Assembly (NCBI GenBank): GCA_964514965.1
Contig: CAZETV010000001.1
Coordinates: 210,001-242,000, forward strand
Length of the DNA stretch: 32,000 nt
Direction: 5' to 3'
Source of the DNA: Candidatus Hadarchaeota archaeon
GTDB lineage: Archaea > Hadarchaeota > Hadarchaeia > Hadarchaeales > Hadarchaeaceae
Each line of letters opens with the position of its first letter. Within the stretch, counting starts at the first letter, position 1. A model generated the notes under the pieces. That model did not search any database. It saw nothing but the letters and a program-made list of their open reading frames with translations, and was not told the DNA's origin. The position numbers and the translations under genes are program-made. Of this stretch, positions 1,915 through 24,941 are shown piece after piece.

Positions 1915-3090
1915 ATGTTAGCGGGTGTGAGATTGAAACCAGCCAAGCGTATGAAAGAAATCCCTCCGTCGAGCACGTTTAAAGTTTTGAACCTCGCCAA
2001 GGAACTCGAGCGCCAAGGAAAGGATATCGTCCACATGGAAGTTGGCGAGCCAGATTTTGACACTCCGGCCCACGTCAAGCGGGCCGCGGAGGAGGCCCTT
2101 GCGCGGGGGATGACAAAATATACACCGAGTGCCGGCCTGCCCGAGTTACGTGAAGCGATTGCGGAGCACTTAGCCACGAAGGGCATTTCCACGGATTCGA
2201 AAAACGTGATAGTTACTCCGGGAGCGAAACACGCTATCTTCTGCGCCTTGGCCGCAACACTTGACCCTGGAGACGAAGTGATAATTCCCAGCCCGTGTTG
2301 GACTTACGAAGCCATGGTGCGGATAGCTGGGGGTAAACCTGTGCTCATAGAGAGTAAACAATCTGATGAATTCAAGGTGAAAGTAGAACAAGTGCAGGAG
2401 GCGCTAAATAGAAATACAAGGATGCTTTTGCTCAACTATCCTAACAACCCAACCGGCGCGGTCATGCAACAAAAAGACCTTCAGCCCATCATCGATCTTG
2501 CTATCGATCATGAGCTTTGGGTTTTGTCCGATGAGATTTACGATTGCTTGGTGTACGATGAAAAACACATGAGCGTTATGTCGCTAGCGAATGCTGCTGA
2601 GCGCACGATTTACATCAACGGTTTTTCGAAAGCTTACGCGATGACAGGCTGGCGTTTGGGTTACGCGGTTGCACCGGTCGAATTGGTCAAGGAGATAAAC
2701 AAGATACAGCAGGCATCGACAACGTGCGCAGCGGGATTTGTACAAGCTGGAGGCGTGGCGGCTTTGTGCGGTCCTCAGGATTGCGTCCGTGAGATGCGTG
2801 ACGAATATCGAAAGCGTCGAGATGCGATCGTCAATGGATTAAACTCGATCGATGAATTCGAATGCGCAAAACCTGCAGGTGCTTTCTACGTATTTCCTCG
2901 CATCAAAAAACCGGAAGTTTCATCCTTAGATTTTTGCGAATCTCTTTTGCGCGAGGCGGGCGTTGCCGCGGTGCCCGGCAGCGGCTTCGGTCCCTATGGT
3001 GAGGGGCATGTACGTTTCAGCTATGCTACCTCGATACAGAATATCCAACGGGCGCTAGATCGGATAGAAGATGCTCTCGCAAAACGTTAG
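1915..3090 (+). CDS. PLP-dependent aminotransferase, class I/II (aspartate/aromatic aminotransferase-like)
   Basis: 391 aa. Contains GEPDFDTP, NYPNNPTG, and FSKAYAMTGWRLGY, where the SKA lysine is the PLP-binding lysine context. Substrate specificity cannot be inferred by eye. Confidence 0.9.
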   Translation: MLAGVRLKPAKRMKEIPPSSTFKVLNLAKELERQGKDIVHMEVGEPDFDTPAHVKRAAEEALARGMTKYTPSAGLPELREAIAEHLATKGISTDSKNVIVTPGAKHAIFCALAATLDPGDEVIIPSPCWTYEAMVRIAGGKPVLIESKQSDEFKVKVEQVQEALNRNTRMLLLNYPNNPTGAVMQQKDLQPIIDLAIDHELWVLSDEIYDCLVYDEKHMSVMSLANAAERTIYINGFSKAYAMTGWRLGYAVAPVELVKEINKIQQASTTCAAGFVQAGGVAALCGPQDCVREMRDEYRKRRDAIVNGLNSIDEFECAKPAGAFYVFPRIKKPEVSSLDFCESLLREAGVAAVPGSGFGPYGEGHVRFSYATSIQNIQRALDRIEDALAKR

Positions 3091-3114
3091 TTTAAATACC
3101 ATAAAAAAAAATTA
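3091..3114 (+). promoter_or_regulatory. AT-rich TATA-like region upstream of receiver gene 1
   Basis: tttaaatacc ataaaaaaaaatta lies directly after the aminotransferase stop, 15-38 nt upstream of ATG 3129. It is followed by the SD-like aggagtg. The exact TATA box and TSS cannot be placed. Confidence 0.25.
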
Positions 3115-3128
3115 TACTAGGAGTGAAA

Positions 3129-3161
3129 ATGTCGAAGAAGATAATGGTTGTAGATGACGAG
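3129..3161. repeat. inverted repeat A, copy 1 (33 nt, perfect; 5' end of receiver gene 1)
   Basis: atgtcgaagaagataatggttgtagatgacgag is identical to the reverse complement of 7872-7904. Identity extends 3 nt upstream of the ATG. Confidence 0.95.
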
Positions 3162-3497
3162 CCCCACATTTGTGAAGCGGTTAAAATCAATCTGGAGGCC
3201 GAAGGGTTCAAAGTGTTAACCGCGTCAAGTGGTCAAGAATGTTTAGACATGTTGAAAAACGAGTCAGTTGATTTGATCTTAATGGATTTCTTTATGCCAG
3301 AGATGAATGGTAGAGAATTGTGTTCAAAAATCAGGAAAGACCCAAAATTAGCGTCCCTCCCGGTAGTATTTCTAACCGTTGCGCAATTTGGTGGAATAGG
3401 GAAGGAGAAATTACGTAAATTGAATATCGCAGATTACATAGCGAAACCTTTCGACAACTCTGATTTAATCAGAATGGTAAAGAAAATTTTTAGATAA
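3129..3497 (+). CDS. stand-alone response-regulator receiver domain protein (CheY-like), paralog 1
   Basis: MSKKIMVVDDE acidic pocket, phospho-acceptor context DLILMDFFMP, conserved T (FLTV) and K (YIAKPF). No output domain. I prefer ATG 3129 over the listed GTG 3123 because paralog 2 starts with the identical MSKKIMVVDDE. Confidence 0.9.
   Translation: MSKKIMVVDDEPHICEAVKINLEAEGFKVLTASSGQECLDMLKNESVDLILMDFFMPEMNGRELCSKIRKDPKLASLPVVFLTVAQFGGIGKEKLRKLNIADYIAKPFDNSDLIRMVKKIFR
3417..3474. repeat. inverted repeat B, copy 1 (58 nt, perfect; 3' part of receiver gene 1)
   Basis: aaattgaatatcgcagattacatagcgaaacctttcgacaactctgatttaatcagaa is identical to the reverse complement of 7559-7616. Confidence 0.95.
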
Positions 3498-3841
3498 ACG
3501 GGAAAAATTGAAAATTTCAGAATTATCTCTTGTAAGCAAAGGGTGAGGCACGGCGCCACCTGCTAGGATTGATTAGAAGAGCGTTACTTAAGTCTGTTTA
3601 TTCTAGGCTTTTGTCCAATTTTAGGAGAATTAACACCAATTTTATAAAAAAATTCGTTGAAATTTTGGGAATTGTGATAAAACACCTTTTTTTATGGCTT
3701 ATTACGAAGCTTTTAAAGTCTAAGATAAATGTTAATCAGTGGGGGTGAACAGGTTGGGCGAAGGCGAGGGCCTCGGAAAAATACTGTTCTTTTTCCGGCA
3801 AGCAATTGACGGAAATCAAGAGAGGTTAAGGAGGCAAAACT

Positions 3842-3874
3842 ATGAAATCTGAAGAAAATGAGGTGGAAGTCTGA
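3842..3874 (+). other. possible 10-codon upstream ORF (MKSEENEVEV) with a strong SD
   Basis: aaggagg lies 7 nt upstream of the ATG. A similar MKGEENV mini-ORF sits upstream of the paralogous 3-TM gene at 9350-9373. Confidence 0.2.
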
Positions 3875-3894
3875 GTATTGATATCGGTTCCATA

Positions 3895-4167
3895 GTGGCT
3901 ATTGTCCTGTCCATCACATATATCGTTATCATCAGTTGGGCCCTTATCTATTTCAGAAAAACTATAAGAATGCTCAGCGGCGGTAAGAACTGGAAGTTAT
4001 TGATAGCGGGGGGCGCGGTATACGGTTTTAGCTTCATCGCCTTTTCACTATGGCATGAACACTCAATCGAATTTCTGATAAGCGACTTGAGCGGAGTGTT
4101 AGGGTCGGCTTTACTTTTGTACGGACTTATGCGGATGCACCGCTCGATAAAGAGGGCGAAAGGATGA
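3895..4167 (+). CDS. small 3-TM membrane protein, module 1
   Basis: 90 aa with three hydrophobic segments and a basic C-tail (MRMHRSIKRAKG). Its stop overlaps the kinase start (ATGA). It is homologous in layout and partly in sequence to ORF 9366-9653. Confidence 0.6.
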   Translation: MAIVLSITYIVIISWALIYFRKTIRMLSGGKNWKLLIAGGAVYGFSFIAFSLWHEHSIEFLISDLSGVLGSALLLYGLMRMHRSIKRAKG

Positions 4168-6098
4168 CAGTTCTCAGCTTCGTCGCTTTTATTATCATGC
4201 TCTTCGCGGTGTTTTATGCGTTCAGTATTCGGAGGATTTATCCGCATCCATTTTGGACTTGGTTCGGGATCGCACTCGTAGGAGCGACCTTGGGTGAAGC
4301 TGGACTCTTTTTACCTAGACCGGTTGCTGAATCGATTTGGCATTTCAATGTGCTCGTCCCCGCGTTGGTGGCAAGTGTATCAGCTCTAATCGCCGCTAAA
4401 AAATTGAAGGCCAGCGCCACATTTTCGAGGGCAGGGGTAGTTGTTGAGGAGAGAGGACTGTTGCGTGGGGAGTTGAGAGTGCTGAGGGCTTACACTCTTT
4501 TGACGAATCATTTTTTGGCAATCATCGCGCCACTTGTCCGAGTTGAACCTTTGAAATATACATTAAATAAATGCGTTGCCGAGCATGAGACACTAAAAGG
4601 TTGCGAAATAACCGACGAAGGGACGCTGAAAACGGATGGAATCATTAATCTTTTGAGTCGGATGAGTGAAGAGGAAGCTACACGAGAAATTTACAATGCA
4701 TTTTCGGCGCTTAATTCGAGCTTAATCGAGCTTTACGCGAATCTCACTTCGCCTAGAAATGCTAGCATAACTGCGGCATCAGCAGCGATGGCAGAAATAG
4801 AACCGTATGCTGATATCTTTAGCAAGACTGGCGTACCGTTTGGTAAACATGAAGAGGTTATTTACCAGTATGGAGTATTACTCCACCTGCCTGACGGTAT
4901 GGCAACACATGACAAAGCGAAAACATTCGCGTTTCTACTGTTCAAAGATGTTTTGGAGCCCCTCCTGAAGCGATGCAAATTGGAAACTGTCGATGCGGTT
5001 CGAGAGCTGATCAGAGAACTCATCGAGAAGAGGCTAATGACCGCCGGAATTAAAATAGCAAACGATGGGACGGTAGACCTCAGCGCGGTTTATGATGGAA
5101 TTGAGGGGTTGCCCACTGAAATGAGCATCAGGGGGGCAGTATCACTGTTTTCTGCCGCCGCGAAAGCCTGTCTTCCCGTTATTCAGAAAGATATAGGTTT
5201 TGAACTCCTGAAGGAGAATATTGAAAATTTTTTCCGTTTGATGATGGTAGAAAAACTGCCACCAGGGTTTGACACGTTAGTTTTTTCTGAAGCGATCAAC
5301 GTCCTACCAGAAGGCTTGCTAGAAAAGGAAAAAATGGAAATCTTGGAAAAAGACGAATTGGAAAGGAGAGTGAGAAAAAAAACCGCCGAACTGGAAAAGG
5401 CATATGCAGAACTTAAAGCGCTGGATCAGCTGAAGGACGAATTCCTCAGTATGATCGCACATGAATTGAAAACACCGCTGACACCTATGAGTAGTTTTTT
5501 GCAGTTGATTGAAAGCGAAAAACTTGGAGAAGTAACCGATAAGCAGAGGGATGCTTTAAAAATAATTTTTCAGGAGATCGGGCGCATGAGAGGCACAATC
5601 GATAAGATTCTGGAGATATCAAGGATAGAATCAGGAAAGATGAAGCTCGAACTTGAAAACTTGCAACTGACGGATCTTATCCAAAACACGATTGAGAAGA
5701 TGAGGCCGATAGCCGATCAAAAGGGTATTGCTCTTAATCAAGAGGTAATCGAATTGCCACTGATCAGAGCAGATGGAGAATGGTTAAGGGTTGTTTTGAA
5801 CAACTTGGTCGAAAACGGGATCAAGTTTACGCCTGAGGGACGCCCAATAACAGTCAGGGCCAAATTACAGGAAGACGCTGTTTTGGTCGAGGTGATAGAC
5901 ACTGGCATAGGGATTGCACCAGAAAACATCCCGAAGCTTTTCACGAAATTCTCCCAAATAGACTATTCCGTTCCGGGAGCTGGTCTGGGTCTGAGTATAT
6001 GCAAGATGATCGTGGAAGCACATGGGGGGAAAATAGGGGTGAAGAGTAGACTGGGTAAAGGCTCGACATTCTTTTTCAAACTACCGGTAAAAATATGA
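4164..6098 (+). CDS. membrane-anchored sensor histidine kinase, paralog 1 (3 TM + unassigned ~280-aa domain + coiled coil + HisKA + HATPase_c)
   Basis: H-box SMIAHELKTPL, N-box NLVENGIKFTP, G1 DTGIGI, F-box FTKF, G2 GAGLGLSICK. The N-terminal ~90 aa are hydrophobic (3 TM). Confidence 0.9.
   Translation: MTVLSFVAFIIMLFAVFYAFSIRRIYPHPFWTWFGIALVGATLGEAGLFLPRPVAESIWHFNVLVPALVASVSALIAAKKLKASATFSRAGVVVEERGLLRGELRVLRAYTLLTNHFLAIIAPLVRVEPLKYTLNKCVAEHETLKGCEITDEGTLKTDGIINLLSRMSEEEATREIYNAFSALNSSLIELYANLTSPRNASITAASAAMAEIEPYADIFSKTGVPFGKHEEVIYQYGVLLHLPDGMATHDKAKTFAFLLFKDVLEPLLKRCKLETVDAVRELIRELIEKRLMTAGIKIANDGTVDLSAVYDGIEGLPTEMSIRGAVSLFSAAAKACLPVIQKDIGFELLKENIENFFRLMMVEKLPPGFDTLVFSEAINVLPEGLLEKEKMEILEKDELERRVRKKTAELEKAYAELKALDQLKDEFLSMIAHELKTPLTPMSSFLQLIESEKLGEVTDKQRDALKIIFQEIGRMRGTIDKILEISRIESGKMKLELENLQLTDLIQNTIEKMRPIADQKGIALNQEVIELPLIRADGEWLRVVLNNLVENGIKFTPEGRPITVRAKLQEDAVLVEVIDTGIGIAPENIPKLFTKFSQIDYSVPGAGLGLSICKMIVEAHGGKIGVKSRLGKGSTFFFKLPVKI
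6021..6077. repeat. direct repeat C, copy 1 (57 nt, 54/57 identical; 3' end of kinase 1)
   Basis: catggggggaaaataggggtgaagagtagactgggtaaaggctcgacattctttttc compared with 11501-11557. Mismatches at 6038, 6043 and 6062. Confidence 0.9.
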
Positions 6099-6107
6099 AT
6101 TTCATCA

Positions 6108-6118
6108 TTTTTTGTTTG
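6108..6118 (+). terminator. oligo-T archaeal-type terminator candidate after kinase 1
   Basis: tttttttgttt begins 10 nt after the TGA stop at 6096-6098. Confidence 0.35.
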
Positions 6119-6351
6119 CCAAGAGTTTACATAGGGGGCGAAATATCTTCCAGCCACGCGGAAATGCAAAGTACACTTTTCAGTCTTTGAGAGAGTGTTT
6201 GAATCTAGGAAAAATTTTAACATCGGAACAAAAATAGCGAAACAAAATCTAACTTTCAAGCAATGATTACACTCGTCTTTCATCGTAGAAAACAAAACAC
6301 AAAACTATTAATATGACGGTCAAGATAATAAATTAGAATAGGAAGGAAAAC

Positions 6352-7518
6352 ATGACTAAGAAACTGGTTCTAGCTGATCTCTTTTTCAACACCGAAAAAG
6401 GGTTTGAAGATTATGGCATGGTGACTTGGGGTAAGGAGCGCAAAATCAATGTTAATCTAGTGCATACGGAGACACTTTCAGCCTATGATGCCTTCATGAA
6501 CGCAACCAAACTTGGCATTTGCAGATACGACGTTACCATGATATGGGGTGGTCTCATCCCCTCAATAGCGGCAAGGAGATACGTCTTGAATCTAGATGAT
6601 TATGTGACCCCTCAGAAAATAGCTGGTTTCCTTCCAGCCAGCATGACCTACATGGATTACAGGGGCTCTTTGTATGCTCTACCCGTAGTATCCAACGTTA
6701 TGGTGTTTTATTATCGGACGGACCTGATCAAAACTCCACCCGCCACGGCGGAAGAATTCCTAGAGCTATCGCGAAAATTCAGCAGGCCCCCTTATCTGTA
6801 TGGATCTGTTTTCTCACTTGCGAGGGGTCCTGCTTTGGTGAACAAGTTTCTAGTCTGGCTGTACACGAACGATGGCAAGCTGTTCGATGAAGACGGCAAA
6901 CCCGCTTTCAACAGTAGAGAAGGAGTAGAAGCCTTGCAGTTCATGGTGGATTTGGTAAAGGTAAGCGGCAGCACCCCCCCTGCGCTGAAGTATTTGGATA
7001 CACTGAGTGAATTGGGCTATTTCGCCTCGGGGAAAGCGGCCATGGCGGTAAATTGGTCAACCATTGGTCAGATTATTGACCCCAGATCAGTTGTGAAAGA
7101 CAAGTGGGCCATCGCTCTGATCCCGGGGATTAAGCACACGGCATCCCTGATCGGTACGGACGGATACATCGTTTCTCCTTACACTCGTTACCCAGAGGAA
7201 GCGGTCGAACTGGCTAAGTATATGACAATGAATTACGAAGTGGCAAAACGTCGCATGTTCTACGGAGAGCTACCAGCGCTAAAAGCCGTTTGGAAAGACC
7301 CTGAAATAGTGGCGAAACGTGGACCTTTCCTCAAGGTAGTCCAGGAGCAGCTGAAATCCTCGAAGGTCGAGTTCAATCATTCCGAGCTAGCGAGGGAGTT
7401 TACAAACCCGATGGTAAACGAAATACAATCCGCGTTGCTCAGACAGAAAACACCCGCACAGGCGTTAGATGACGCCGCGGCCGCAGTGGAGAGGATACTC
7501 GAGATAGGGATAGTTTAG
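6352..7518 (+). CDS. ABC-type solute-binding-protein-like protein (family 1, sugar-binding-like) lacking a signal peptide
   Basis: 388 aa. Typical SBP_bac_1 strings: YDVTMIWGG, LYALPVVSNVMVFYYRTDL, KAAMAVNW, GTDGYIVSPYT. The N-terminus MTKKLVLADLFFNTEKGFEDYG has no hydrophobic signal or lipobox. In-frame stops lie just upstream. Confidence 0.85.
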   Translation: MTKKLVLADLFFNTEKGFEDYGMVTWGKERKINVNLVHTETLSAYDAFMNATKLGICRYDVTMIWGGLIPSIAARRYVLNLDDYVTPQKIAGFLPASMTYMDYRGSLYALPVVSNVMVFYYRTDLIKTPPATAEEFLELSRKFSRPPYLYGSVFSLARGPALVNKFLVWLYTNDGKLFDEDGKPAFNSREGVEALQFMVDLVKVSGSTPPALKYLDTLSELGYFASGKAAMAVNWSTIGQIIDPRSVVKDKWAIALIPGIKHTASLIGTDGYIVSPYTRYPEEAVELAKYMTMNYEVAKRRMFYGELPALKAVWKDPEIVAKRGPFLKVVQEQLKSSKVEFNHSELAREFTNPMVNEIQSALLRQKTPAQALDDAAAAVERILEIGIV

Positions 7519-7535
7519 CTGAACGTTTTCGATAC

Positions 7536-7904
7536 CTATTTTATAAGCCTTTTTACCCTTCTGATTAAATCAGAGTTGTCGAAAGGTTTCGCTATGTAAT
7601 CTGCGATATTCAATTTGCGCAGCTTCTTCTTCCCAACTTCGCCGAATTGTGCGACGGTGCGAATCGCTACTTTGAGGAACTTTAACGTGGGATCCTCTCT
7701 TATCTTTTCAAGCACTTCCCTGCCATTCATTCCCGGCATGAAGAAATCTAACAAGACTAGGTCGACTTGTTCATTTTTTAATTTTTCCAAACACTCTGGT
7801 CCACTTGCAGCGGTCAGAACTTTTAATCCTTCGGCTTCAAACATTGCTTTCATCGCTTCACGAATGGGCGCCTCGTCATCTACAACCATTATCTTCTTCG
7901 ACAT
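7536..7904 (-). CDS. stand-alone response-regulator receiver domain protein (CheY-like), paralog 2
   Basis: MSKKIMVVDDE..., DLVLLDFFMPGMNG, YIAKPF. The start is set at the ATG at 7904, homologous to paralog 1. The 37-aa upstream extension in the ORF track has no counterpart in paralog 1. Confidence 0.9.
   Translation of the reverse strand: MSKKIMVVDDEAPIREAMKAMFEAEGLKVLTAASGPECLEKLKNEQVDLVLLDFFMPGMNGREVLEKIREDPTLKFLKVAIRTVAQFGEVGKKKLRKLNIADYIAKPFDNSDLIRRVKRLIK
7559..7616. repeat. inverted repeat B, copy 2 (3' part of receiver gene 2)
   Basis: Reverse complement identical to 3417-3474. Confidence 0.95.
7872..7904. repeat. inverted repeat A, copy 2 (5' end of receiver gene 2)
   Basis: Reverse complement identical to 3129-3161. 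Confidence 0.95.
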
Positions 7905-8351
7905 TTTTCTCAAATAAAAAAGAACTTTTGCTCTCTTTAACTCTTGCGGCGCCAAGCGGCAGACAGCAATTCTTTTAAGGGCGGGACTTGACGCAAAGCC
8001 ATTCTGGTAGCTCAATTCGGGATAATAACCAATACGTGAGTAGTATTCAAAGGTGTAATCTCAAAGCACATACTTTTTTCATTGTCGATTGTATAGAGTC
8101 CATTGTAATCGAAAATTGTTTCAAGTGATAGGATGGTTGGAAAAGGTGAAGAATAAAATAGTCAAAAGCAAATCCAATTTGTTAGTCACGATAGACCCGA
8201 GTAATTTTTCAAACAGACAATTCGCAAATATGAGGAGAAAAATGAAGGAGATGAATGTAAAATAATTTGTGTATATGTGAAAAGTTACATAAGGTTAATC
8301 AAAGATGGAGGATATATCTGAACACGAAATCAGCTAGAAGCAGGCGTTTAA

Positions 8352-9224
8352 ATGCAAAAACATAGTATGACGAAAATAGCGAAGGGAGTGTTTTGGATAC
8401 ACAGGCCACAGCTTTCTATAATGGCGTTTCTTATCTCTATTGCCGGAATCTTTTTAGCAGGCGGGTTTGATTTGGTCCTAATGTTAGAGGTGGGTTTCTT
8501 ATTCTGGTTTATACAGTGTTTAGCCCACCCAATAAATGACTACTTCGATAGAAAATCAGATGAAACTGGCAGGCCAAGTGCGCCGATTCCTGCAAAATTG
8601 TTAACTTTAAAACAAGCCAAAATTATTATTGGTCTGGATTATATTACTGCGGCAATCTTAATCATAATCATACCTCTGAATCTCACAGTTAAAATTTTCG
8701 CGACAATTGCCCTTTTTCACACTTACATCTTTTCTGCACCCCCTGTTCATGCAACCGCAAAAGGCATTTTGGCGAGTATTGTACTGGCCACCGCATTTAT
8801 TACAACATTCTTAGGCGGGTGGGTGGCAGCAAGTGGGTGGAGATATGACCCCATCCTCATACCTCTTTCTTTGCTCATAGGTTCTACGCATATGACCGCG
8901 AAAAATATTGCAGATATTATTGACGTGCACTCAGATAAAAGATCAGGACGTGTCACGCTTCCGATGCAGATAGGTGTCAAGAAATCGTTTTACGTAGCGG
9001 CTTTTTTTGGAATATTCACCATTTTTTTGTTTTTCTTATCAGATTTCTTTTGCCGTATGAATGTCCTTTACTTGGCTACAGGTGCGATCGGTTCTATTAT
9101 TACCTTTCTGTGTCTTTTCTATTTTCAAAAAGATTTTGGTAAAGTGACGGGGAGAAAATATTTTGAAATATCCACGCTACCAACATTTATATTTCCTATC
9201 GCGATAATACTGGGGTCAATCTGA
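8352..9224 (+). CDS. UbiA-family integral-membrane prenyltransferase (DGGGP-synthase-like)
   Basis: 290 aa, polytopic. First Asp-rich motif NDYFDRKSDETGRPSAPIP; second KNIADIIDVHSDKRSGRVTLP. Confidence 0.85.
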   Translation: MQKHSMTKIAKGVFWIHRPQLSIMAFLISIAGIFLAGGFDLVLMLEVGFLFWFIQCLAHPINDYFDRKSDETGRPSAPIPAKLLTLKQAKIIIGLDYITAAILIIIIPLNLTVKIFATIALFHTYIFSAPPVHATAKGILASIVLATAFITTFLGGWVAASGWRYDPILIPLSLLIGSTHMTAKNIADIIDVHSDKRSGRVTLPMQIGVKKSFYVAAFFGIFTIFLFFLSDFFCRMNVLYLATGAIGSIITFLCLFYFQKDFGKVTGRKYFEISTLPTFIFPIAIILGSI

Positions 9225-9349
9225 ACACATTTAAATTTGGATTCAACTCTAAGGTACTGGTTGGGTGTTGATAGTGCCTAATGATAAAAGAAAGTCATCG
9301 CGACTAATTGCAAAAATTACAAAATTTTATCGAAGTGTAACTCTAAAGA

Positions 9350-9373
9350 ATGAAAGGGGAAGAGAATGTTTGA
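9350..9373 (+). other. possible 7-codon upstream ORF (MKGEENV) overlapping the start of the module 2 3-TM gene
   Basis: atgaaaggggaagagaatgtttga. The ATG of ORF 9366 is embedded in it in another frame. It resembles the module 1 mini-ORF. No clear SD. Confidence 0.15.
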
Positions 9374-9653
9374 GCCATTAATTTTTTTATTTGTGAGTTT
9401 TGGGCTTGTGTTTGTTATTTATTCCGTTTTAAGCATTTACAAAGCCCTGAATTTTCTTCGCTTCCCTAAGCTTTTGATGCCTATAGGATTAGGCTTCATC
9501 GGTGGCACACTACTCTCTGTGGGAATTCTCTTTCTACATCTGGGTGGGGTTCTCGATAAGTATGGCTGGATCATTTTCATTTATCCATGTGTTGTCGGCC
9601 CTCTGTCTATCCTTGCAGTTTACAGCCTTAGGAGGAAGTTGCACGCTAGTTGA
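9366..9653 (+). CDS. small 3-TM membrane protein, module 2
   Basis: 95 aa. It aligns by eye with the module 1 protein: KLLMPIGLGFIGGTLLSVGILFLH vs KLLIAGGAVYGFSFIAFSLWH, and C-tail VYSLRRKLHAS vs LYGLMRMHRS. Confidence 0.55.
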   Translation: MFEPLIFLFVSFGLVFVIYSVLSIYKALNFLRFPKLLMPIGLGFIGGTLLSVGILFLHLGGVLDKYGWIIFIYPCVVGPLSILAVYSLRRKLHAS

Positions 9654-9681
9654 CCTACTTGCAACATTTGGCATTGGAACG

Positions 9682-9942
9682 ATGTTAATAACGTGCTTTC
9701 TAGTACGTTACTTACCTATAAGTTTCAAACTTCAGAAATATATCGGGAGTTCAGCTTTTTTTGCGACGTTAGTCTGGATATTACTCTATGTGTTTATTCA
9801 AACTGGACAGGATGTATTTATTGTGGGTTTAGCGATATCTACCCTCATCTCTTCTATTCTCGGAGCATTAGCTGGCAGAGAAGTATTAAAAATTACTCGC
9901 GCGCCAAAATATATGTTAGAAACGTCCGAGAAAACTCATTAA
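9682..9942 (+). CDS. TM fragment corresponding to the N-terminal membrane anchor of kinase paralog 2
   Basis: This frame gives TM-like sequence that aligns with the kinase 1 N-terminus: M12, L13 and F17 match when counted from codon 9649, and LISSILGALAGREVLKI resembles ALVASVSALIAAKKLKA. The first in-frame ATG is at 9682. It is separated from the kinase core by a frame change. Confidence 0.45.
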   Translation: MLITCFLVRYLPISFKLQKYIGSSAFFATLVWILLYVFIQTGQDVFIVGLAISTLISSILGALAGREVLKITRAPKYMLETSEKTH

Positions 9943-9949
9943 AAAACAG

Positions 9950-11578
9950 GTGATTTTGCTTGAAACCTATGCCGAGATAATAAATAGATTATTGAGCCGC
10001 ATGGTTTTTATTTGTGATATCAAAGCAATTAAAAATATATTTGACAAGCGCGAGGAAGACCAACCAATTCTCAAAGGATGTTGGTCAAATGAAAATACGA
10101 TAAACACAGACGCGGTGTTAAAGAATCTTGGAGAAACAAGCGAGGGAGAATCCGAATCCAAGTTGTTAAATGCATTTTCGAGTCTTACTTCAGGGCTCAT
10201 CGACTTGTACGGCACCGTCACCTCGCATGACCGCGCAACCGCGATGGCAGCAACAGTAATAAACGAGGTAGGAATCAAGCGGCACGACGGAATCTTGGGG
10301 AGAGTAGGGGTACCGCTTGGTAAATATAATGAAATCTTATACGAACGGGGGATATTGCTCCATTTACCAGATGGTATAGCCCTACAGGGAAAAGCGAAAA
10401 CCTTTGCATTCATGGTTTTCAAAGATATTCTTGAACCACTTTTAAGACAATGCATTCCGAATACTATCGATGAAATTAGAGATCGATTCAGAGAACTCAC
10501 AAAGAGAAAACCGATTATTATGGGAGTCAAAATAGCCGACAATGGAACGGTGAATATCAGCAAGTTATATAGCGACATTGAAGGATTACCCGCCGAAAAA
10601 AGTGTTGAAGAGATAATATCCGCCTCTTCCGCTGCATTAGATGTTTGTTTTCCTATTATCCAAAAAGATATAGGCTTTAATAGTTTGAAAAAAATCACGG
10701 AAAATATTTTTCACTCCAAGATTTTCGAAAAAATACCAAAAGAGTTCGACTTATTGGCAACTTTTTTAGAAATTACTAAACCAATGCCTAAAGGTATGCT
10801 GGAAAAAGAAAAGTTAACTTTCTTAAGTAAGGAAGAATTGGAGCGAAGGGTAAGGGATAGAACTGCCGAATTGGAAAAGGCTTACAGAAAATTGAAAGTA
10901 CTGGATCGTATGAAAGATGATTTTCTAGACATGACTTCACATGAGTTGAGGACTCCGCTGACCGCTATAAACAGCTTTCTACAGTTAATAGGCAGTGAAA
11001 AGTTAGGAAAAATTACTAAAAAACAAAAGAATGCTGTGAAAACCATTTCTCAGGAGTTGAAGCGTCTTAGGGATTCAATCGATAAAATTTTAGAAACATC
11101 TAGGCTGGAATCGGGGCGCATACAATCTGATATGAAAGCCCTGCAACTAGCGGAACTCATTCAAAAAACGGTTAAAAAAATGAAAATATTAGCCAAGCAA
11201 AAAGGGATTACAATAACCCAAAAAATAGCAAAATTACCTTTGATCAAAGGTGATGAAGGGCAGCTGATAGGAGTCATGACCAATTTGATTGATAATGCGA
11301 TTAAATTCACCCCGAGAGGAGGCATAATCACAGTTGATGCCAAAAAGAAGAAAGATAATATTTTAGTCGAAGTAAAAGACACGGGCATGGGAATAGCCAA
11401 GAAGAACCTGCCAAAGCTGTTTACAAAGTTCTTCCAGGTAGAGCACTCCATTCCAGGTGCTGGTATGGGGTTACGGATATGCAAGATAATTGTGGAAAAG
11501 CATGGGGGGAAAATAGGAGTGAGGAGTAGACTGGGTAAAGGTTCGACATTCTTTTTCGTGCTGCCAATAAAACAATAG
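9950..11578 (+). CDS. sensor histidine kinase, paralog 2, cytoplasmic core (unassigned domain + HisKA + HATPase_c); probably the 3' part of a frameshifted gene
   Basis: H-box DMTSHELRTPL, N-box NLIDNAIKFTP, DTGMGI, GAGMGLRICK. It is collinear with kinase 1 residues ~105-644. The listed start is a GTG without an SD. Confidence 0.85.
   Translation: MILLETYAEIINRLLSRMVFICDIKAIKNIFDKREEDQPILKGCWSNENTINTDAVLKNLGETSEGESESKLLNAFSSLTSGLIDLYGTVTSHDRATAMAATVINEVGIKRHDGILGRVGVPLGKYNEILYERGILLHLPDGIALQGKAKTFAFMVFKDILEPLLRQCIPNTIDEIRDRFRELTKRKPIIMGVKIADNGTVNISKLYSDIEGLPAEKSVEEIISASSAALDVCFPIIQKDIGFNSLKKITENIFHSKIFEKIPKEFDLLATFLEITKPMPKGMLEKEKLTFLSKEELERRVRDRTAELEKAYRKLKVLDRMKDDFLDMTSHELRTPLTAINSFLQLIGSEKLGKITKKQKNAVKTISQELKRLRDSIDKILETSRLESGRIQSDMKALQLAELIQKTVKKMKILAKQKGITITQKIAKLPLIKGDEGQLIGVMTNLIDNAIKFTPRGGIITVDAKKKKDNILVEVKDTGMGIAKKNLPKLFTKFFQVEHSIPGAGMGLRICKIIVEKHGGKIGVRSRLGKGSTFFFVLPIKQ
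11501..11557. repeat. direct repeat C, copy 2 (3' end of kinase 2)
   Basis: catggggggaaaataggagtgaggagtagactgggtaaaggttcgacattctttttc. Confidence 0.9.
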
Positions 11579-11694
11579 ACAACTGTTGATAACATCTTTA
11601 ATTTAGGCAAAATGGCGAATAGACTCCATGAAATAATTAAACTTTTTCCAAAGGAAACCTTTTATTTCAAACTCAGCAATAACTATTTGATTAC

Positions 11695-12537
11695 ATGCGC
11701 AATTTACTAAAACGGACGGAGAAAGAACCACCCTTAGATGTAACCGTGAAAAAGCTGACGAAGGAACGGAAAAAACGTGAAAAAGAGGTTGAGGGCCCTG
11801 AATGGGTGAAAACTGGAATTCCCGGGTTTGATGACTTAATCGAGGAAGGGGGCATCCCAAAAGGCGCAAATATCCTCATTTCGGGAGGGCCGGGAACCGG
11901 AAAAACGATTTTCTGTTTACAGACCCTTTATAACGCAGCCTGCAACGGACATAAATGCCTGTATATCACATTTGAAGAATCGCCGGAGAGTTTGAAAAAA
12001 CACATGAAGCAATTTGGTTGGAAAATCGACACCCTCGAGAAAAATGATTTATTCGTTATAAAAAGGTTGGATCCATTCCGCATAGCGAGGTCTGTCGAGG
12101 CGTTACTTGCAAAGGCAGCAGGCCAGTTGCCGATAGAAATGAAAGGATTGCCGAAATTAATCCCTGATGGTTTCAATCCGTACATGATTGCGATGGACTC
12201 GGTCTCTGCTCTTGAATCCGCGTTCACAGGAAAACCAGAGAGTTACAGAATTTATATCGAACAACTATTCAGGCTTTTTGAGGAGGCTGGAGGGATGACC
12301 TTTTTGATAACGGAAACGGAGGAAGCTCCGAAGAGATACTCAAGAACTGGCGTAGAAGAATTTCTCGCGGATGGTGTATTTGTCTTTTACTACGGCAAGG
12401 TGCGAGATATGCGATTGAGGGCCGTTGAAATATTAAAGTTGAGAGGAGCAAAGCACATAAACAAAATCGTGCCCGTCTATATAACTGACAAGGGAATAGA
12501 AATTCTCCCTGGCGAACGCATTTTTGAGGTTGAATAA
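11695..12537 (+). CDS. KaiC-like / RecA-superfamily ATPase (single domain), motifs intact
   Basis: GIPGFDDLIEEGGIPKG, then Walker A ILISGGPGTGKT, Walker B YMIAMDSVSAL and FLITETEE. The start is uncertain. An in-frame GTG at 11806 would give MKTGIPGFDDL, matching the N-terminus of the neighbouring paralog. Confidence 0.85.
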   Translation: MRNLLKRTEKEPPLDVTVKKLTKERKKREKEVEGPEWVKTGIPGFDDLIEEGGIPKGANILISGGPGTGKTIFCLQTLYNAACNGHKCLYITFEESPESLKKHMKQFGWKIDTLEKNDLFVIKRLDPFRIARSVEALLAKAAGQLPIEMKGLPKLIPDGFNPYMIAMDSVSALESAFTGKPESYRIYIEQLFRLFEEAGGMTFLITETEEAPKRYSRTGVEEFLADGVFVFYYGKVRDMRLRAVEILKLRGAKHINKIVPVYITDKGIEILPGERIFEVE

Positions 12538-12593
12538 AAATTAATTATGTTAGTTAACCGAGTCCAAGTAATCAAACGAAACAGCGGCAGATA

Positions 12594-13340
12594 TCAACCT
12601 TCTCCAGTAATTCCCCAACCCTTTAAAATAATTCCCTTGTGGGTTAACTTGTACGGGGTTGGTTTCATGACGTAATTTATCCCTGGCATTTTTTTAATTG
12701 TTAGCCAGCGATGATATTTTTCTTTCCCCCTCAATGACAGTTCGAACACAGCATCAGAAAAATCCATCGCCCAACTCACGGTTGTTTGACTATGCGAGCG
12801 CGGATTTAATATGAAAATCCCTATGCTCCCGTTAAGCTTGGCTAACACGCTTAGGTACCTCATGAGCTTTAAAACAGGGGCTTCTCCCGCAAAGAGCATC
12901 AGTACAGAAAAAGTGTGATGGATAAACCGTAAGTTGTTGTCTGCTTTCTCGCCAAGAGACTCTCTAGCCATGGCAAAAGCTCGTTGAACTTTGCTCAAAT
13001 CGCTTATGTCCTCTATGACATGCTCCACATCTGTCGGAGTTTGTTTGAACCCGCTGACTTGCGTGTATCCGTCGATTATTTGTAGCTTACCCGTCTCCTC
13101 ATATGGTCTCACGTTAAATTCGAGGTCATCGGCAATCGACCTGACCAAGGCAGGTGGGTGGTCGTAAGAAACGAACTGGCCGTATTCACCCTTTGCCAGA
13201 CCTTCGCAAAGAATTTTCATAGCGAAAGTTGCACCCTTTGTCCCTGGCTCTTCAAGCAAAAGTATGGATGTTCCTCTGGGGATTCCGCCACCCAAAAATT
13301 CATCTAAACCCTTAATACCGGTTTTTGCTAACTTTTCCAA
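12594..13340 (-). CDS. KaiC-like / RecA-fold protein with degenerate nucleotide-binding motifs (predicted inactive)
   Basis: KTGIKGLDEFLGGGIPRGTSILLLEEPGTKGATF aligns with the KaiC-like N-terminus, but the P-loop GK[ST] is lost (EEPGTKGA). The Walker B aspartate position reads FIHHTFSVL. Confidence 0.7.
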   Translation of the reverse strand: MEKLAKTGIKGLDEFLGGGIPRGTSILLLEEPGTKGATFAMKILCEGLAKGEYGQFVSYDHPPALVRSIADDLEFNVRPYEETGKLQIIDGYTQVSGFKQTPTDVEHVIEDISDLSKVQRAFAMARESLGEKADNNLRFIHHTFSVLMLFAGEAPVLKLMRYLSVLAKLNGSIGIFILNPRSHSQTTVSWAMDFSDAVFELSLRGKEKYHRWLTIKKMPGINYVMKPTPYKLTHKGIILKGWGITGEG

Positions 13341-13721: not shown

Positions 13722-15806
13722 ATGAGACAAATTAAGAAATTGCGGCGATTGCCTGCAACGCTTTTGCTGGTAGCCGCAGTAATAATATCTTTGTTGGCAT
13801 GCTTAATCACGCTACCTGCTGCCGTCCATGCCAGCATCAGTACACTAAATCCTAATGCAGACGGAAATTATCAACAATGGACTCCTGTTGGTGGCACTTC
13901 TTACGAAGCAACTTCAGACGAGTCAAATAACACTTTTGTTTATGTCGCTGGAAATATAACTTATAAAGAAACTGTAAATTTGCAAGACCCAACCTTTCAA
14001 GATACCGCTGCAATCAACAATGTTACCGTGTATGTGCGCGTTTTGGCTAGTACGCAAGGACAACAAGTCGTTATCCTCATCAGAACTGACGGCACAGATT
14101 ATGAAAGTGGAACAATGGGAGTAAGCAAGGGTGCTTTTACAGATTACTCAAATGTTTGGGGAAATAATCCTAAAACTGGTCTGCCGTGGACTAAAGCGCA
14201 AGTGGCAGCTTTGGAAGTTGACATAATGGCGTCAAAATTGGATGCCGGTGAAAATATAGAGTGTTCAGAGATATGGGTAGTGATCAACTATACGCCATTC
14301 GACTTCTCGATAAGCGCATCACCCAGCAGCCTCTCGGTCCAGCAGGCTGGCTCGGTATCGACAACGGTTAATGTTATGCTTATCCAAGGTACGGCTGGGA
14401 CTGTCAACCTTAGCGGCACATGGATTGGGACTGCGCCGGGCGGGGTTACTCCAAGTTTTAGCCCATCCTCTAGTACTCCAGATTTTGATAGTACTCTAAC
14501 TTTTTCAACAACCGCAGCTGCAACAGTTGACAACTTTACCTACAGGGTGTTCGGTAAAAGTGGTGATCAGACTCACACCATAGATGTCAAGCTGGAGATA
14601 ACCGAGCTGATATTCCCGGCTGCCTCCACTTTGCTTTCACCGGAGAACGGAATAACCACAGATATCCTCACGCCAAAGTTTGACTGGGCCAATGCCGCGG
14701 GTGCCACATCTTATATACTGGAGATAGCAACAGACAACACTTTTTCAAACATCGTACGCACCAAAACTACGATAGAATCGACCACGACTCTTTCCGAAAC
14801 CGAAAAGTTATCTTATGGGATTCATTACTACTGGAGAGTCCGGGGAATAAACGCCGCAGGGTCAGGAGATTGGTCGTCTATTTGGAGCTTCATCGCAAAG
14901 ACAACCGCCCCGAAGATTTTGATTTTTAAAATTGATACCAAAAATCAATATACAAATTCCACGAGTGTCGAGTTGGCCATATCCGCGCTGAACGCGGTGG
15001 AGATGCAGTTCTCAAACGACGGGGTGATATGGGGTGAATGGGAACCCTACCAGACATTAAAATCTTATTCGTTGGAGCCACCGGACGGCGTCAAAAACGT
15101 TTACGTCAAGGTCATGGACAATGTTGGAGATATTGGGCAGACAATTCTAGATTCGATAATCTTGGACCAAACGCCACCAAGCACCACCTATTCTCTTTCG
15201 GGAGACCTGGGCACAGATGGTTACAAGGACTCGGTTGTGGTCACGCTGACCAGTATAGACGTTTACAGTGTTGCGTCAATAAAACACAAAGTTGATAACG
15301 GCGAGTGGCAAACAGGGAACACATTCGTGATTTCGAGTGAGGGTAAGCACACAATCGAATATTACTCAACAGACGCCGCTGGGAACGACGAGGGGATAAA
15401 ATCTTTCCAAGTGACGGTATACACACCTTTTACCTTCCCGCTGACCCTATTGTTGGGCATTCTTTTGGTGATTGCGGCAGTTGTATTCGTCGCATTGCTC
15501 CGCCTAAGAGGTCCCTCGCCTAAAAAAATGTTAAATATGGTTCTGGAGGAAAAAAAGGAAGCCTTAATGCTCAAAAAAGATGCTGCCATAAAATATTTCA
15601 AAAATGGCTCCATAAGCAGGGATATCTACGATGAGTTGATGGCAAAATATGATAGCAGGATGGCGGAACTCGAAGAAAAGGAGCGATTGTTGCGGGCGAG
15701 AATAAAAAGAAAACCAAAGAAAAATGCCAAAAAGCGCGAGAAGAAAAAGTCGAGAGAAGCAACGGAGAGGCTCCAGAGTATAAAAAAGAAAATAGATCGC
15801 GTTTGA
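13722..15806 (+). CDS. large secreted/surface-anchored protein with Ig/FN3-like repeats, a C-terminal TM helix and a Lys-rich cytoplasmic tail
   Basis: N-terminal signal-like MRQIKKLRRLPATLLLVAAVIISLLACLITLPAAVHA. FN3-like segment (SPENG...YYWRVRGINAAGSGDWS). Beta-sandwich segment DQTPPSTTYSLSG...KHKVDNGEWQTGNTF...GKHTIEYYSTDAAGNDEG. TM LTLLLGILLVIAAVVFVALL. The last ~110 aa are K/E/R-rich. Confidence 0.8.
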   Translation: MRQIKKLRRLPATLLLVAAVIISLLACLITLPAAVHASISTLNPNADGNYQQWTPVGGTSYEATSDESNNTFVYVAGNITYKETVNLQDPTFQDTAAINNVTVYVRVLASTQGQQVVILIRTDGTDYESGTMGVSKGAFTDYSNVWGNNPKTGLPWTKAQVAALEVDIMASKLDAGENIECSEIWVVINYTPFDFSISASPSSLSVQQAGSVSTTVNVMLIQGTAGTVNLSGTWIGTAPGGVTPSFSPSSSTPDFDSTLTFSTTAAATVDNFTYRVFGKSGDQTHTIDVKLEITELIFPAASTLLSPENGITTDILTPKFDWANAAGATSYILEIATDNTFSNIVRTKTTIESTTTLSETEKLSYGIHYYWRVRGINAAGSGDWSSIWSFIAKTTAPKILIFKIDTKNQYTNSTSVELAISALNAVEMQFSNDGVIWGEWEPYQTLKSYSLEPPDGVKNVYVKVMDNVGDIGQTILDSIILDQTPPSTTYSLSGDLGTDGYKDSVVVTLTSIDVYSVASIKHKVDNGEWQTGNTFVISSEGKHTIEYYSTDAAGNDEGIKSFQVTVYTPFTFPLTLLLGILLVIAAVVFVALLRLRGPSPKKMLNMVLEEKKEALMLKKDAAIKYFKNGSISRDIYDELMAKYDSRMAELEEKERLLRARIKRKPKKNAKKREKKKSREATERLQSIKKKIDRV

Positions 15807-21080: not shown

Positions 21081-21167
21081 TGGAGCCGCCGGCGAGGATT
21101 GAACTCGCGACCTCCACCTTTTTGTAAGCATACCAAGGTGGCGTTCTACCAACTGAGCTACGGCGGC
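21081..21167 (-). tRNA. tRNA-Thr (anticodon GGU) with an 11-nt intron at 37/38, CCA encoded
   Basis: Manual fold: acceptor GCCGCCG/CGGCGGC, D arm GCTC-AGTTGGTA-GAAC (one mismatch), anticodon stem CCACC/GGTGG. Loop TTGGTA[TGCTTACAAAA]A, variable AGGTC, T arm GCGAG-TTCAATC-CTCGC, discriminator U, then CCA. Confidence 0.8.
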
Positions 21168-24089: not shown

Positions 24090-24941
24090 GTGCCCGTGAT
24101 CGAAACCAAGAATGTCAAGAAGTATTACGGCAATGTCCGGGGTGTTGAGAAGCTCAGCTTTGAAGTTAAAGAGGGTGAGATATACGGCTTTCTCGGTCCA
24201 AATGGGGCAGGGAAAACAACAACCGTAAAAATCCTATCAAAAATTCTCAGGGGCTATGGTGGGGATATCAAAGTTTTCGGCAAGGATTTAAAAAAGTGGG
24301 GAAAGGATTACTACCAAAGAATTAGCGTTTCCTTTGAGTTTCCCGCCATCTATTCCAAGCTCACGGCGTTTGAAAATTTAGAATTTTTTGCGTCGTTTTA
24401 CAAGAGTCATCTCAAACCGATGGAGGTTCTCAAGATCGTGGGGCTCGGTAAAGAAGCGGACCAAAGAGTCTCGACCTTTTCAAAGGGGATGAAGAAAAAG
24501 CTCGACCTGGCCAGGGCTCTGCTCCCGGGCCCGGAAATACTCTTCCTCGATGAACCCCTTGAGGGACTGGACCCTGCAAGCGCAAGAAAACTCAAAGACC
24601 TCTTCCTGGAGATGAAGGAAGACAGAGGAACAATATTTCTGACGACGCACAACATGTACGTGGCGGACGAACTTTGTGATAGAGTCGCCTTTATAGTCGA
24701 CGGTGCGGTAAAACTCGTCGACAACCCTGAAGAGCTAAAGGTGAAAATGGGCAAGCACAGGGTTAAAGTCGAATACTACGTCAGAAACAGGGCAAAGAGC
24801 AGGGAATTCCCCCTTCAGGAAATTGGTCGGAGCAAGGAGTTCACGGACATTCTCAAAAAATACGAAGTGAGGAGAATAAACACGGAGGAGCCGACGTTGG
24901 AGGAGATCTTCCTGAATATCACGGGCAGGAGGCTCTTATGA
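24090..24941 (+). CDS. ABC transporter ATP-binding protein (ABC-2 exporter type)
   Basis: Walker A GPNGAGKTT, signature FSKGMKKKLDLA, Walker B ILFLDEPLEGLD, H-loop TTHNM. GTG start. Confidence 0.9.
   Translation: MPVIETKNVKKYYGNVRGVEKLSFEVKEGEIYGFLGPNGAGKTTTVKILSKILRGYGGDIKVFGKDLKKWGKDYYQRISVSFEFPAIYSKLTAFENLEFFASFYKSHLKPMEVLKIVGLGKEADQRVSTFSKGMKKKLDLARALLPGPEILFLDEPLEGLDPASARKLKDLFLEMKEDRGTIFLTTHNMYVADELCDRVAFIVDGAVKLVDNPEELKVKMGKHRVKVEYYVRNRAKSREFPLQEIGRSKEFTDILKKYEVRRINTEEPTLEEIFLNITGRRLL

Follow-up and report, generated by a model that had tools for sequence, protein, structure and literature searches.

A candidate Hadarchaeota signalling locus joining a two-component phosphorelay to KaiC-family proteins

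Introduction

Makarova, Galperin and Koonin are said to have described, in mBio in 2017, archaeal networks in which KaiC-family proteins act as a 'signal transduction hub'. Other systems that invite comparison with the locus reported here are the small membrane proteins that modulate kinases, as in MgrB–PhoQ, SafA–PhoQ, and MzrA–EnvZ, and the bacterial sensor kinases that depend on a solute-binding protein (SBP), namely LuxP–LuxQ, TorT–TorS, and ChvE–VirA. The locus occupies positions 3091–13340 of a 32,000-nucleotide (nt) stretch of DNA from a Candidatus Hadarchaeota archaeon (assembly GCA_964514965.1, contig CAZETV010000001.1, positions 210,001 to 242,000 of the forward strand), the whole of which is called the window below, and it encodes histidine kinases (HK), stand-alone receivers (REC), small proteins with three transmembrane (TM) segments, a KaiC-family ATPase (KaiC1), and an inactivated KaiC-like protein (iKaiC).

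A hub role in archaeal signalling has been proposed for KaiC-family proteins, DUF835 and MEDS being counted among the inactivated KaiC domains (PMC5847659), and fusions of the types REC-DUF835, iKaiC-REC, and MEDS-REC have been catalogued (Galperin et al. 2018, PMC5847659). In the same census, stand-alone REC proteins make up about 40% of the response regulators of archaea, DNA-binding ones being rare (Galperin et al. 2018, PMC5847659); signalling is presumed to operate mainly by protein–protein interaction, and Hadarchaeota have 0 occurrences (PMC5847659). A preliminary description of this locus noted that a DNA-binding regulator is missing and took the output to be unexplained by standard two-component logic; because stand-alone receivers are common and DNA-binding regulators rare in archaea, the missing output is not anomalous.

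We report here the gene content, domain family, repeat structure, fusions, synteny, breakpoints, and lesions of the locus, and we infer from sequence comparison a complex of the small protein with the sensor and signalling from the receiver to the two KaiC-like proteins. With modest confidence, we read the region as a signalling locus specific to a Hadarchaeota lineage, in which a two-component phosphorelay is linked to KaiC-family proteins. In the proposed mechanism, the sensor's TM segment would combine with the small 3-TM protein into one membrane module, a split version of a longer fused domain, and tandem helical units of the kinase (modules A and B) would couple this module, via a helix bearing a PEG-LEKEK motif, to the HisKA/HATPase core. 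The kinase would then phosphorylate the stand-alone receiver, and the phosphorylated receiver (REC~P) would act on the adjacent KaiC-like ATPase and on iKaiC, both of which would relay to an output outside the locus. In this genome the locus has been rewired, with a cassette brought in, the ancestral GH3-like and DUF835 genes lost, and the ancestral kinase HK2 cut.

Gene content of the locus

All genes of the preliminary description were recovered, at the positions given there, in Pfam and NCBIfam scans of the window proteins, three corrections apart. The features, in window coordinates, are as follows.

3123–3497, plus strand: REC1, stand-alone receiver (Pfam Response_reg, E 1.5e-26)
3743–3803, plus strand: 5' remnant of a GH3-like gene, about 20 codons, the left cassette breakpoint (blastn against relatives)
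3895–4167, plus strand: sTM1, 90 amino acids (aa), 3-TM protein (open reading frame (ORF) and hydropathy)
4164–6098, plus strand: HK1, 644 aa, kinase with HisKA and HATPase_c (Pfam, family search, AlphaFold)
6352–7518, plus strand: SBP, signal-less homologue of CUT1-type sugar-binding proteins (Pfam SBP_bac_1/8)
7536–7904, minus strand: REC2, inverted paralogue of REC1, the right end of the cassette (Pfam)
8006–8259, plus strand: frameshifted 3' remnant of a multi-TM DUF835 (iKaiC) gene, the right cassette breakpoint (tblastn)
8352–9224, plus strand: UbiA-family prenyltransferase (Pfam UbiA, E 6.5e-23)
9366–9653, plus strand: sTM2, 95 aa, 3-TM protein, conserved partner of HK2 (orthologues in relatives)
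9643–9942, plus strand: membrane fragment of HK2 (comparison with the single-frame orthologue in L002)
9950–11578, plus strand: cytoplasmic ORF of HK2 (HK2cyt), with modules A and B, linker, HisKA, and HATPase_c (Pfam)
11695–12537, plus strand: KaiC1, single-domain KaiC-family ATPase (Pfam KaiC, E 1.6e-54)
12594–13340, minus strand: iKaiC, inactivated KaiC-like protein, convergent (Pfam KaiC, E 1.7e-23, and DUF7504)

Thirteen related Hadarchaeota loci were compared with the window, L002–L007 from genomes and L017–L023 from metagenomes; most of the contigs are partial, and the loci that have a source name are all from metagenome-assembled genomes of Candidatus Hadarchaeota (Hadesarchaea).

Association of the kinases with KaiC-family proteins

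KaiC1 begins 116 nt after the second kinase and, as described before, is intact and convergent with a motif-dead paralogue. It carries the Walker A (GGPGTGKT), catalytic Glu pair (TFEES), and Walker B (MIAMDS) motifs of a KaiC/RecA ATPase, whereas all the corresponding motifs of iKaiC are degenerate (EEPGTKGAT, SYDHPP, LMLFAG), in the same way in five genomes, at a ratio of nonsynonymous to synonymous substitution rates (dN/dS) of 0.2–0.3. iKaiC is present in every related locus that spans its position and is kept where KaiC1 has been lost (L003 and L004); in L004, KaiC1 is a 95-aa C-terminal remnant (11450–11737) and iKaiC is intact. With 280 aa and one KaiC domain, KaiC1 aligns to cyanobacterial CI only and does not have the tandem CI and CII arrangement; its PDB matches are KaiC CI, PH0284, and PH0186, and no KaiA or KaiB match was found by Pfam among the 15 scanned proteins encoded between 292 and 16594. 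At its N-terminus (11695–11800), KaiC1 has an extension of about 35 aa rich in Lys, Arg, and Glu, conserved in L005 and L006, in which a 30-nt tandem-like repeat is found (11742–11771 and 11773–11802, 70%).

The HK2–KaiC1–iKaiC adjacency is kept in L005, L006, and L017–L022, and comparable associations occur in other loci. In L008/L024, of a different lineage, genes for KaiC, a GH3-like enzyme, a TM protein, and DUF835 precede a long-TM A/B-DUF835 sensor; in L013, two small ORFs and an A/B-iKaiC fusion are followed by two KaiC-like genes; in L014, a wHTH gene and a double-domain KaiC precede an A/B-DUF835 sensor; and in L015 a kinase gene is followed by a REC gene. In L012, a 99-aa membrane protein gene overlaps that of an A/B kinase, which is followed by a REC-DUF835-wHTH regulator; L011 has a similar arrangement with a 100-aa protein, its regulator being 45% identical to that of L012 over the full length. 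The receiver of the L012/L011 regulator is about 40% identical to both REC1 and REC2. Since receiver, iKaiC domain, and wHTH thus form one polypeptide in L012, with the L011 homologue aligning over its full length, since many relatives carry iKaiC domains on the A/B module itself, and since no neighbour of HK2 is as constant as iKaiC, the most likely targets of REC~P are iKaiC and KaiC1.

A tandem helical domain family

The unassigned kinase domain of about 280 aa that had been pointed out in the preliminary description is a tandem duplication. It consists of two homologous repeats of about 120 aa, modules A and B, and a linker; in HK1, module A spans aa 102–222 (nt 4467–4829) and module B aa 248–364 (nt 4905–5255), with an insert at aa 223–247 between them, and the linker (aa 365–399), with the conserved pattern 'lPEGlLEKEK..L..EELE', leads to the kinase. 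The homology of the two modules is significant at the profile level (hhalign 98%, E 2e-13). Module A is the most widespread part of the family and is always membrane-adjacent, whereas module B occurs only in a subset. AlphaFold predicts HK1 modules A and B together with a pLDDT of 88.9 and a pTM of 0.79, and module A alone with 92.1 and 0.86, both models being confident. Within each predicted unit, a long helix is followed by a second helix, then by a beta-hairpin, and finally by a short and a long helix. Conservation is strongest at F180, S196, and N115, and Cys271 is found in 96% of the members that contain module B; C147 is also conserved.

HK1 aa 96–399 matches nothing in Pfam at E ≤ 1 except for a chance Zein-binding match, and it has no covering NCBIfam match. 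Against PDB sequence profiles the A/B domain gives only insignificant calmodulin matches, and Foldseek against PDB gives no match (best E 0.57 and 3.1), so that by profile and fold the region matches none of the known sensor or transmitter domains (PAS, GAF, HAMP, Cache, MEDS, PocR, HisKA_7TM, etc.). An EF-hand in the hairpin 'I..DG.vdl..vY' was considered and rejected, since the calmodulin E-values (0.009–0.07) are insignificant and acidic residues are lacking at the Ca-ligand positions 1, 3, and 12. In a word-indexed homologue search, the sensor domain alone found no match and its profile only 2 proteins; the 6-sequence alignment used for the genome scan gives patterns that reach the close subfamily only.

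An exhaustive profile search yielded a family of 100 cluster representatives, which, where the source is named, come from Hadarchaeota, Thermoplasmatota/Thermoplasmata, and one unclassified 'bacterium' bin. Pfam scans of 94 A/B members found HATPase_c in 38, HisKA in 30, PAS in about 27, DUF835 in 23, DUF7504 in 3, KaiC in 2, and MEDS in 2. As these counts include both kinds of fusion, the same A/B input module feeds either a kinase or an iKaiC output.

Small 3-TM proteins as part of a proposed split membrane module

The stop codon of sTM1 overlaps the HK1 start by 4 nt (ATGA). A small gene of about 90–110 aa lies directly upstream of the A/B sensor also in L011 and L012, with the same 4-nt overlap, and in L016 and L004, where the overlap is 8–11 nt; in L013 the two genes do not overlap, a gap of 8 nt separating them. 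Across the family, such a small 3-TM protein usually comes before the A/B domain. Orthologues of sTM2 (55–81% identical) are found directly upstream of HK2 in L002–L005, L007, and L017–L021, and an sTM2 homologue precedes a DUF835-output sensor in L016. sTM1 has no Pfam match, and sTM1 and sTM2 show no pairwise similarity in BLASTP, being related at the profile level only; phmmer of the small proteins against the family gives one weak match.

Many A/B family members have instead a membrane region of about 180 aa (the long form). In profile–profile comparison, the small proteins match the N-half of this region (hhalign 92.6%, E 4.7e-7) but not its C-half (0.9%), and, reciprocally, the TM region of the short-form sensors matches the C-half (78.7%) rather than the N-half (14%). 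From this reciprocal pattern, we read the small protein and the short sensor TM region as putative products of gene fission, or precursors of gene fusion, of one membrane module. The N-half homology, the place directly upstream, the usual overlap, and the conservation across phyla point to the small protein being an obligate subunit rather than an accessory regulator.

Kinases, receivers, and the lesions of HK2

The two paralogous modules of the preliminary description stand as far as the receivers (71% aa identity) and the kinases (51% identity over 540 aa, the unassigned region included) are concerned, but the small proteins are not pairwise similar and the modules are not equivalent. HisKA was found in HK1 (Pfam E 2.9e-17) and HK2cyt (E 1.9e-15), the H-boxes HELKTPLT and HELRTPLT carrying the phospho-acceptor His in both kinases. 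HATPase_c, the GHKL ATP-binding domain, was likewise found in both (E 3.9e-29 and 6.1e-27), and the N, G1, and G2 boxes are readable (NLVENGIKFTP, DTGIGI, GAGLGLSICK) and intact in HK1 and HK2cyt. In HK1, the TM region occupies approximately aa 1–80, HisKA aa 424–491, and HATPase_c aa 537–643. The D-D acidic pocket, the phospho-acceptor D, the T, and the K can all be read in REC1 and REC2. REC1 is the ancestral, syntenic copy, with 86–88% aa identity to its counterparts in relatives and a dN/dS of 0.06–0.10.

Of the two 3-TM kinases claimed before, HK1 is confirmed, but HK2 is not intact. Its orthologues in L002, L004, and L005 are encoded in one frame (644 aa in L004), and the L002 gene, which overlaps sTM2 by 11 nt, starts with a GTG after GGAGG. 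At the position of this GTG, the window has ACG (9643), and further downstream a 2-nt deletion is evident (L002 ACTCTTATT versus ACTCATT in the window). Owing to the 2 missing nt, the membrane part stops at a TAA (9940–9942) and the cytoplasmic part is separate, the kinase ORF restarting at a GTG (9950) in another frame. HK2 has thus lost its start codon, and what is left of the gene is a TM fragment plus a separate ORF, still open, for a soluble kinase. HK2cyt is 77–81% identical to its orthologues, and its dN/dS against them (0.25–0.28), compared with 0.39–0.42 among the intact orthologues, indicates that selection is not relaxed. A natural TM-less A/B kinase is encoded in L003, beginning 4 aa upstream of the position equivalent to the HK2cyt start.

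The frameshift lies beside an AAAA run (9931–9934, within 9931–9946), where a +1 slip would restore the frame at the cost of one residue. Neither evidence for recoding nor a stimulatory element was found, and the start codon is also lost; a programmed +1 frameshift that rescues HK2 has a low probability.

Cassette replacement and synteny

The composite gene order of the 13 loci is LysRS, aminotransferase, REC1, GH3-like, multi-TM DUF835, UbiA, sTM2, HK2, KaiC1, iKaiC, surface protein, XPF, and NFACT. By blastn, homology of the window to L002, L004, L005, and L007 runs from 3000 to 3803, stops, and resumes at 8082. The left breakpoint corresponds to L002 position 5195, 60 nt inside its GH3-like gene, and near the right one the L002 DUF835 protein matches two pieces in different frames (tblastn E 4.6e-13). 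Because homology breaks at 3803/8082 and gene remnants lie at both ends, we conclude from the sequence comparison that a 4.3-kb cassette (3804–8081), containing sTM1, HK1, SBP, and the inverted REC2, replaced the GH3-like and multi-TM DUF835 genes in this genome only; sTM1, an HK1 orthologue, and the SBP are absent from all 13 related loci. REC1 and REC2 constitute a 371-nt inverted repeat (3126–3496 and 7537–7907, 75% complementary) that brackets most of the cassette and could in principle mediate inversion. A REC pseudogene in the HK1–SBP spacer (6213–6243) was considered but is not supported, the trace being a 31-nt, 71% match to REC 3' ends with tblastn E >= 1.

The neighbourhood survey suggested in the preliminary description, for co-occurrence of the kinase domain with the 3-TM protein, SBP, UbiA, and KaiC-like genes, bore out only part of this association. 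The core order UbiA–sTM2–HK2–KaiC–iKaiC is shared by those related Hadarchaeota loci that extend across it, and the pairing of the kinase with the small TM protein and the link to a KaiC-like gene recur also in unrelated lineages, but the SBP recurs in none of the neighbourhoods examined and UbiA is confined to one clade. L003 is a variant with two RECs, a weak terpene-synthase-like ORF, sTM2, a 3TM-A/B-DUF835 protein, the soluble A/B kinase, and iKaiC, and with neither UbiA nor KaiC1; an A/B-DUF835 protein and the kinase are both present in L017 as well. Adenylate-forming enzymes adjoin A/B sensors in several loci (LuxE-like in L011, 6679–8058; GH3-like in L008, 4712–6334, and in L002, 5135–6754).

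SBP and UbiA

The SBP has a type-I SBP fold (Pfam SBP_bac_1, E 1e-26; SBP_bac_8, E 2.6e-25), and its best PDB matches, MalE3 and TMBP (E 6e-25 and 2e-22), align from the mature N-terminus. As claimed before, it is signal-less: no signal peptide, lipobox, or N-terminal anchor is present, the N-terminus is not hydrophobic, and the ORF is not extendable, since a stop lies in frame 5 codons before the ATG and every frame upstream is closed. The protein is an orphan, with a nearest homologue 34% identical, and those homologues with complete N-termini that were read are ordinary exported CUT1 proteins with signal peptides. The SBP–HK1 combination is confined to this genome and the identical contig L001, and the SBP is also absent from all other A/B-family neighbourhoods examined. 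No ABC permease or ATPase gene was found by Pfam within 3091–13340. At 24090–24941, 16 kb from the SBP, an ORF is ABC ATPase-like by sequence and is followed by two hydrophobic ORFs.

UbiA has both Asp-rich motifs of its family (NDYFDRKSD and DIIDVHSD); its best NCBIfam matches are DGGGP synthase-like and below cut-off (PRK12882, 80.2 bits versus 296; PRK12884, 76.7 versus 269). The gene is syntenic within one clade and absent from L003 and all loci outside the clade. L018 has two tandem UbiA copies (142–2245), and in L003 the UbiA position is taken by a 345-aa ORF upstream of sTM2 (5994–7031) that matches terpene synthases weakly (E 1.8e-4, short of the Pfam cut-off) and represents a second enzyme of isoprenoid type. 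A functional link of UbiA to the locus is unproven, and a link of the SBP to signalling is unsupported.

Other features of the window

The island is AT-rich, as had been stated, with a GC of 0.37–0.47 versus about 0.50–0.52 in the flanks. Recent horizontal import is rejected as the source of this composition, because the same low-GC dip is present at this locus in all relatives. Class I LysRS and an XPF nuclease (Pfam), together with the archaeal RNase P RNA described below, show the window to be archaeal. A sigma-70 promoter and terminator scan is uninformative for an archaeon.

Divergently oriented relative to iKaiC, a predicted 694-aa surface protein (13722–15806, plus strand) begins with a signal/anchor and contains Ig/fn3-like and OmpL47-type domains, with a TM helix at the C-terminus and a coiled tail rich in Lys; its gene is syntenic in relatives and duplicated in L021 and L022. 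An 84-nt tRNA (21084–21167, minus strand) is recognized by Rfam (52.9 bits), is absent from the ARAGORN output, and may have an intron or a long variable arm. The archaeal RNase P RNA (30379–30666, plus strand; 199.5 bits) is adjoined by a GC-rich (54–57%) gene pair (27654–30187, minus strand) that is 2-oxoacid:ferredoxin oxidoreductase-like by sequence, of which the ORF 27654–28787 has an unusual N-terminal extension rich in Arg and Gly.

Discussion

The results described above are best accommodated, in our view, by a Hadarchaeota locus in which a kinase with a split membrane module may signal through a stand-alone receiver to KaiC-family proteins, although several points weigh against it. 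The contacts between small protein and sensor, REC and iKaiC, and KaiC1 and iKaiC are proposed from sequence comparison, and no DNA-binding or other terminal output is identified in the Hadarchaeota locus. In a hidden Markov model test with shuffled controls, cruder than the profile–profile result and pointing in the same direction, the match of sTM1 to the family profile is marginal (9.4 bits, whereas the highest-scoring of 520 shuffles reaches 12.3) and sTM2 on its own gives none. KaiC1 is dispensable in two relatives, and the housekeeping flanks (LysRS, aminotransferase, XPF, NFACT) are equally syntenic, so that within the clade the conserved order may only mean recent common ancestry. The evidence for the HK2 lesions is one assembly, the independent Logan contig L001 covering only the cassette part from the REC1 3' end to the SBP. 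Some of these points would equally suit a mosaic of independent neighbours, with the two-component partners elsewhere and the KaiC pair, UbiA, and SBP unrelated and together by shared chromosomal ancestry; the flanks as syntenic as the island, the loss of KaiC1 in L003 and L004, and the uninformative neighbourhoods of most archaeal stand-alone REC genes (PMC5847659) speak for such a mosaic. It accords poorly with the A/B module being fused, in about 28 of the 94 family members, to domains of iKaiC type, with the KaiC-family genes that flank A/B sensors in at least three unrelated loci, and with the kinase-adjacent regulator of L012, which carries an iKaiC domain over a region that the L011 homologue also aligns with, and we regard it as unlikely.

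Somewhat more credible, though still short of an even chance, is the possibility that module 2 is a dead relic, HK2 being a pseudogene and only the newly acquired HK1–REC2 pair, perhaps together with REC1, being active. The start change from GTG to ACG and the stop-producing 2-nt deletion are two independent lesions, and the presence of a paralogous kinase cassette is consistent with a functional take-over; yet the 1.6-kb cytoplasmic ORF is entirely open in DNA of 39% GC, its dN/dS (0.25–0.28) is not above that between intact orthologues, a GTG is present at the junction, and a TM-less A/B kinase occurs naturally in L003 with a start 4 aa from the equivalent position. We consider improbable the original view, by which all 10 kb of the island make up a single undescribed system with ligand input from the cytoplasmic SBP to the kinase domain and with UbiA and the KaiC pair as additional parts. 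In its favour, the SBP is complete in fold and has neither a signal peptide nor a neighbouring ABC partner, its gene follows HK1 in the same cassette at a distance of 253 nt and in the same orientation, and SBP-dependent kinases such as LuxP–LuxQ and TorT–TorS exist in bacteria. However, module 1 with the SBP is a one-genome cassette that took the place of the GH3-like/DUF835 pair, the SBP–HK1 pair is restricted to this genome and the identical L001, the SBP is found in 0 of 13 related loci, its nearest homologue is only 34% identical, its homologues with complete N-termini carry signal peptides, and UbiA is missing from L003 and every locus outside the clade; conservation therefore gives no support to the SBP as kinase input or to UbiA as a component.

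The conserved cysteines and the adenylate-forming and isoprenoid-type neighbours are leads only as to the sensed signal. We speculate, assigning it very little probability, that the A/B module and its split membrane partner represent a new class of archaeal transmembrane receptor with interchangeable kinase and iKaiC outputs, for which the neighbouring adenylate-forming enzyme would make or modify the sensed signal, with the isoprenoid enzymes suggesting a self-produced lipid or acyl-amino-acid cue, that is, an autoinducer circuit read via the KaiC hub.

The proposed phosphorelay to KaiC-family proteins would be of interest beyond this genome. Signal transduction in archaea is little understood; the KaiC-hub proposal is still almost entirely computational, and this locus offers a concrete and tractable case; pairwise interaction tests are possible because REC, KaiC, and iKaiC are separate proteins in Hadarchaeota. 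Defining the A/B family would improve the annotation of proteins now labelled 'DUF835 domain-containing', 'HAMP domain-containing histidine kinase', or 'hypothetical'. The window also displays locus evolution, with a cassette replacement that left datable remnants and a kinase cut exactly at the membrane/cytoplasm junction.

The features of the locus are worth comparing with those of the described systems. As in the archaeal KaiC hub networks (PMC5847659), a single-domain KaiC and inactivated homologues are tied to kinases and REC proteins, with an output presumed to be by protein–protein contact, and the REC/kinase/KaiC/iKaiC network fits this already published idea; in contrast, the A/B module and the small 3-TM partner are unannotated in current Pfam and NCBIfam. 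The circadian KaiC has tandem CI and CII, whereas KaiC1 has a single domain. The REC-DUF835-wHTH regulator of L012 and its L011 homologue go with the same kinase family and the same small upstream membrane protein, whereas the window encodes REC and iKaiC separately and its locus is without a wHTH. Classical HisKA systems with CheY-like regulators share intact kinase boxes and an intact REC pocket encoded at the same locus; the window kinases, however, have no periplasmic, PAS, HAMP, or GAF sensor but a split membrane module of the 3+3 type and a tandem helical domain, the receiver has no effector domain, and no che genes are present in the locus. LuxP–LuxQ, TorT–TorS, and ChvE–VirA resemble the window in that an SBP homologue is encoded beside a histidine kinase, but their SBPs are exported and contact a periplasmic kinase domain, whereas the window SBP is without a signal peptide, there is almost no extracytoplasmic loop in the kinase, and no relative keeps the pairing. 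Finally, a short membrane protein presumed to act on the TM region of the kinase is common to MgrB–PhoQ, SafA–PhoQ, and MzrA–EnvZ, whereas here the small protein is homologous to the N-half of a fused membrane domain and its gene lies directly upstream of the sensor, mostly with an overlap of a few nt, in an arrangement conserved across phyla. Altogether, the apparent novelty lies in the tandem helical module, so far without annotation, in the interchangeability of its kinase and iKaiC outputs, and in its split membrane partner.

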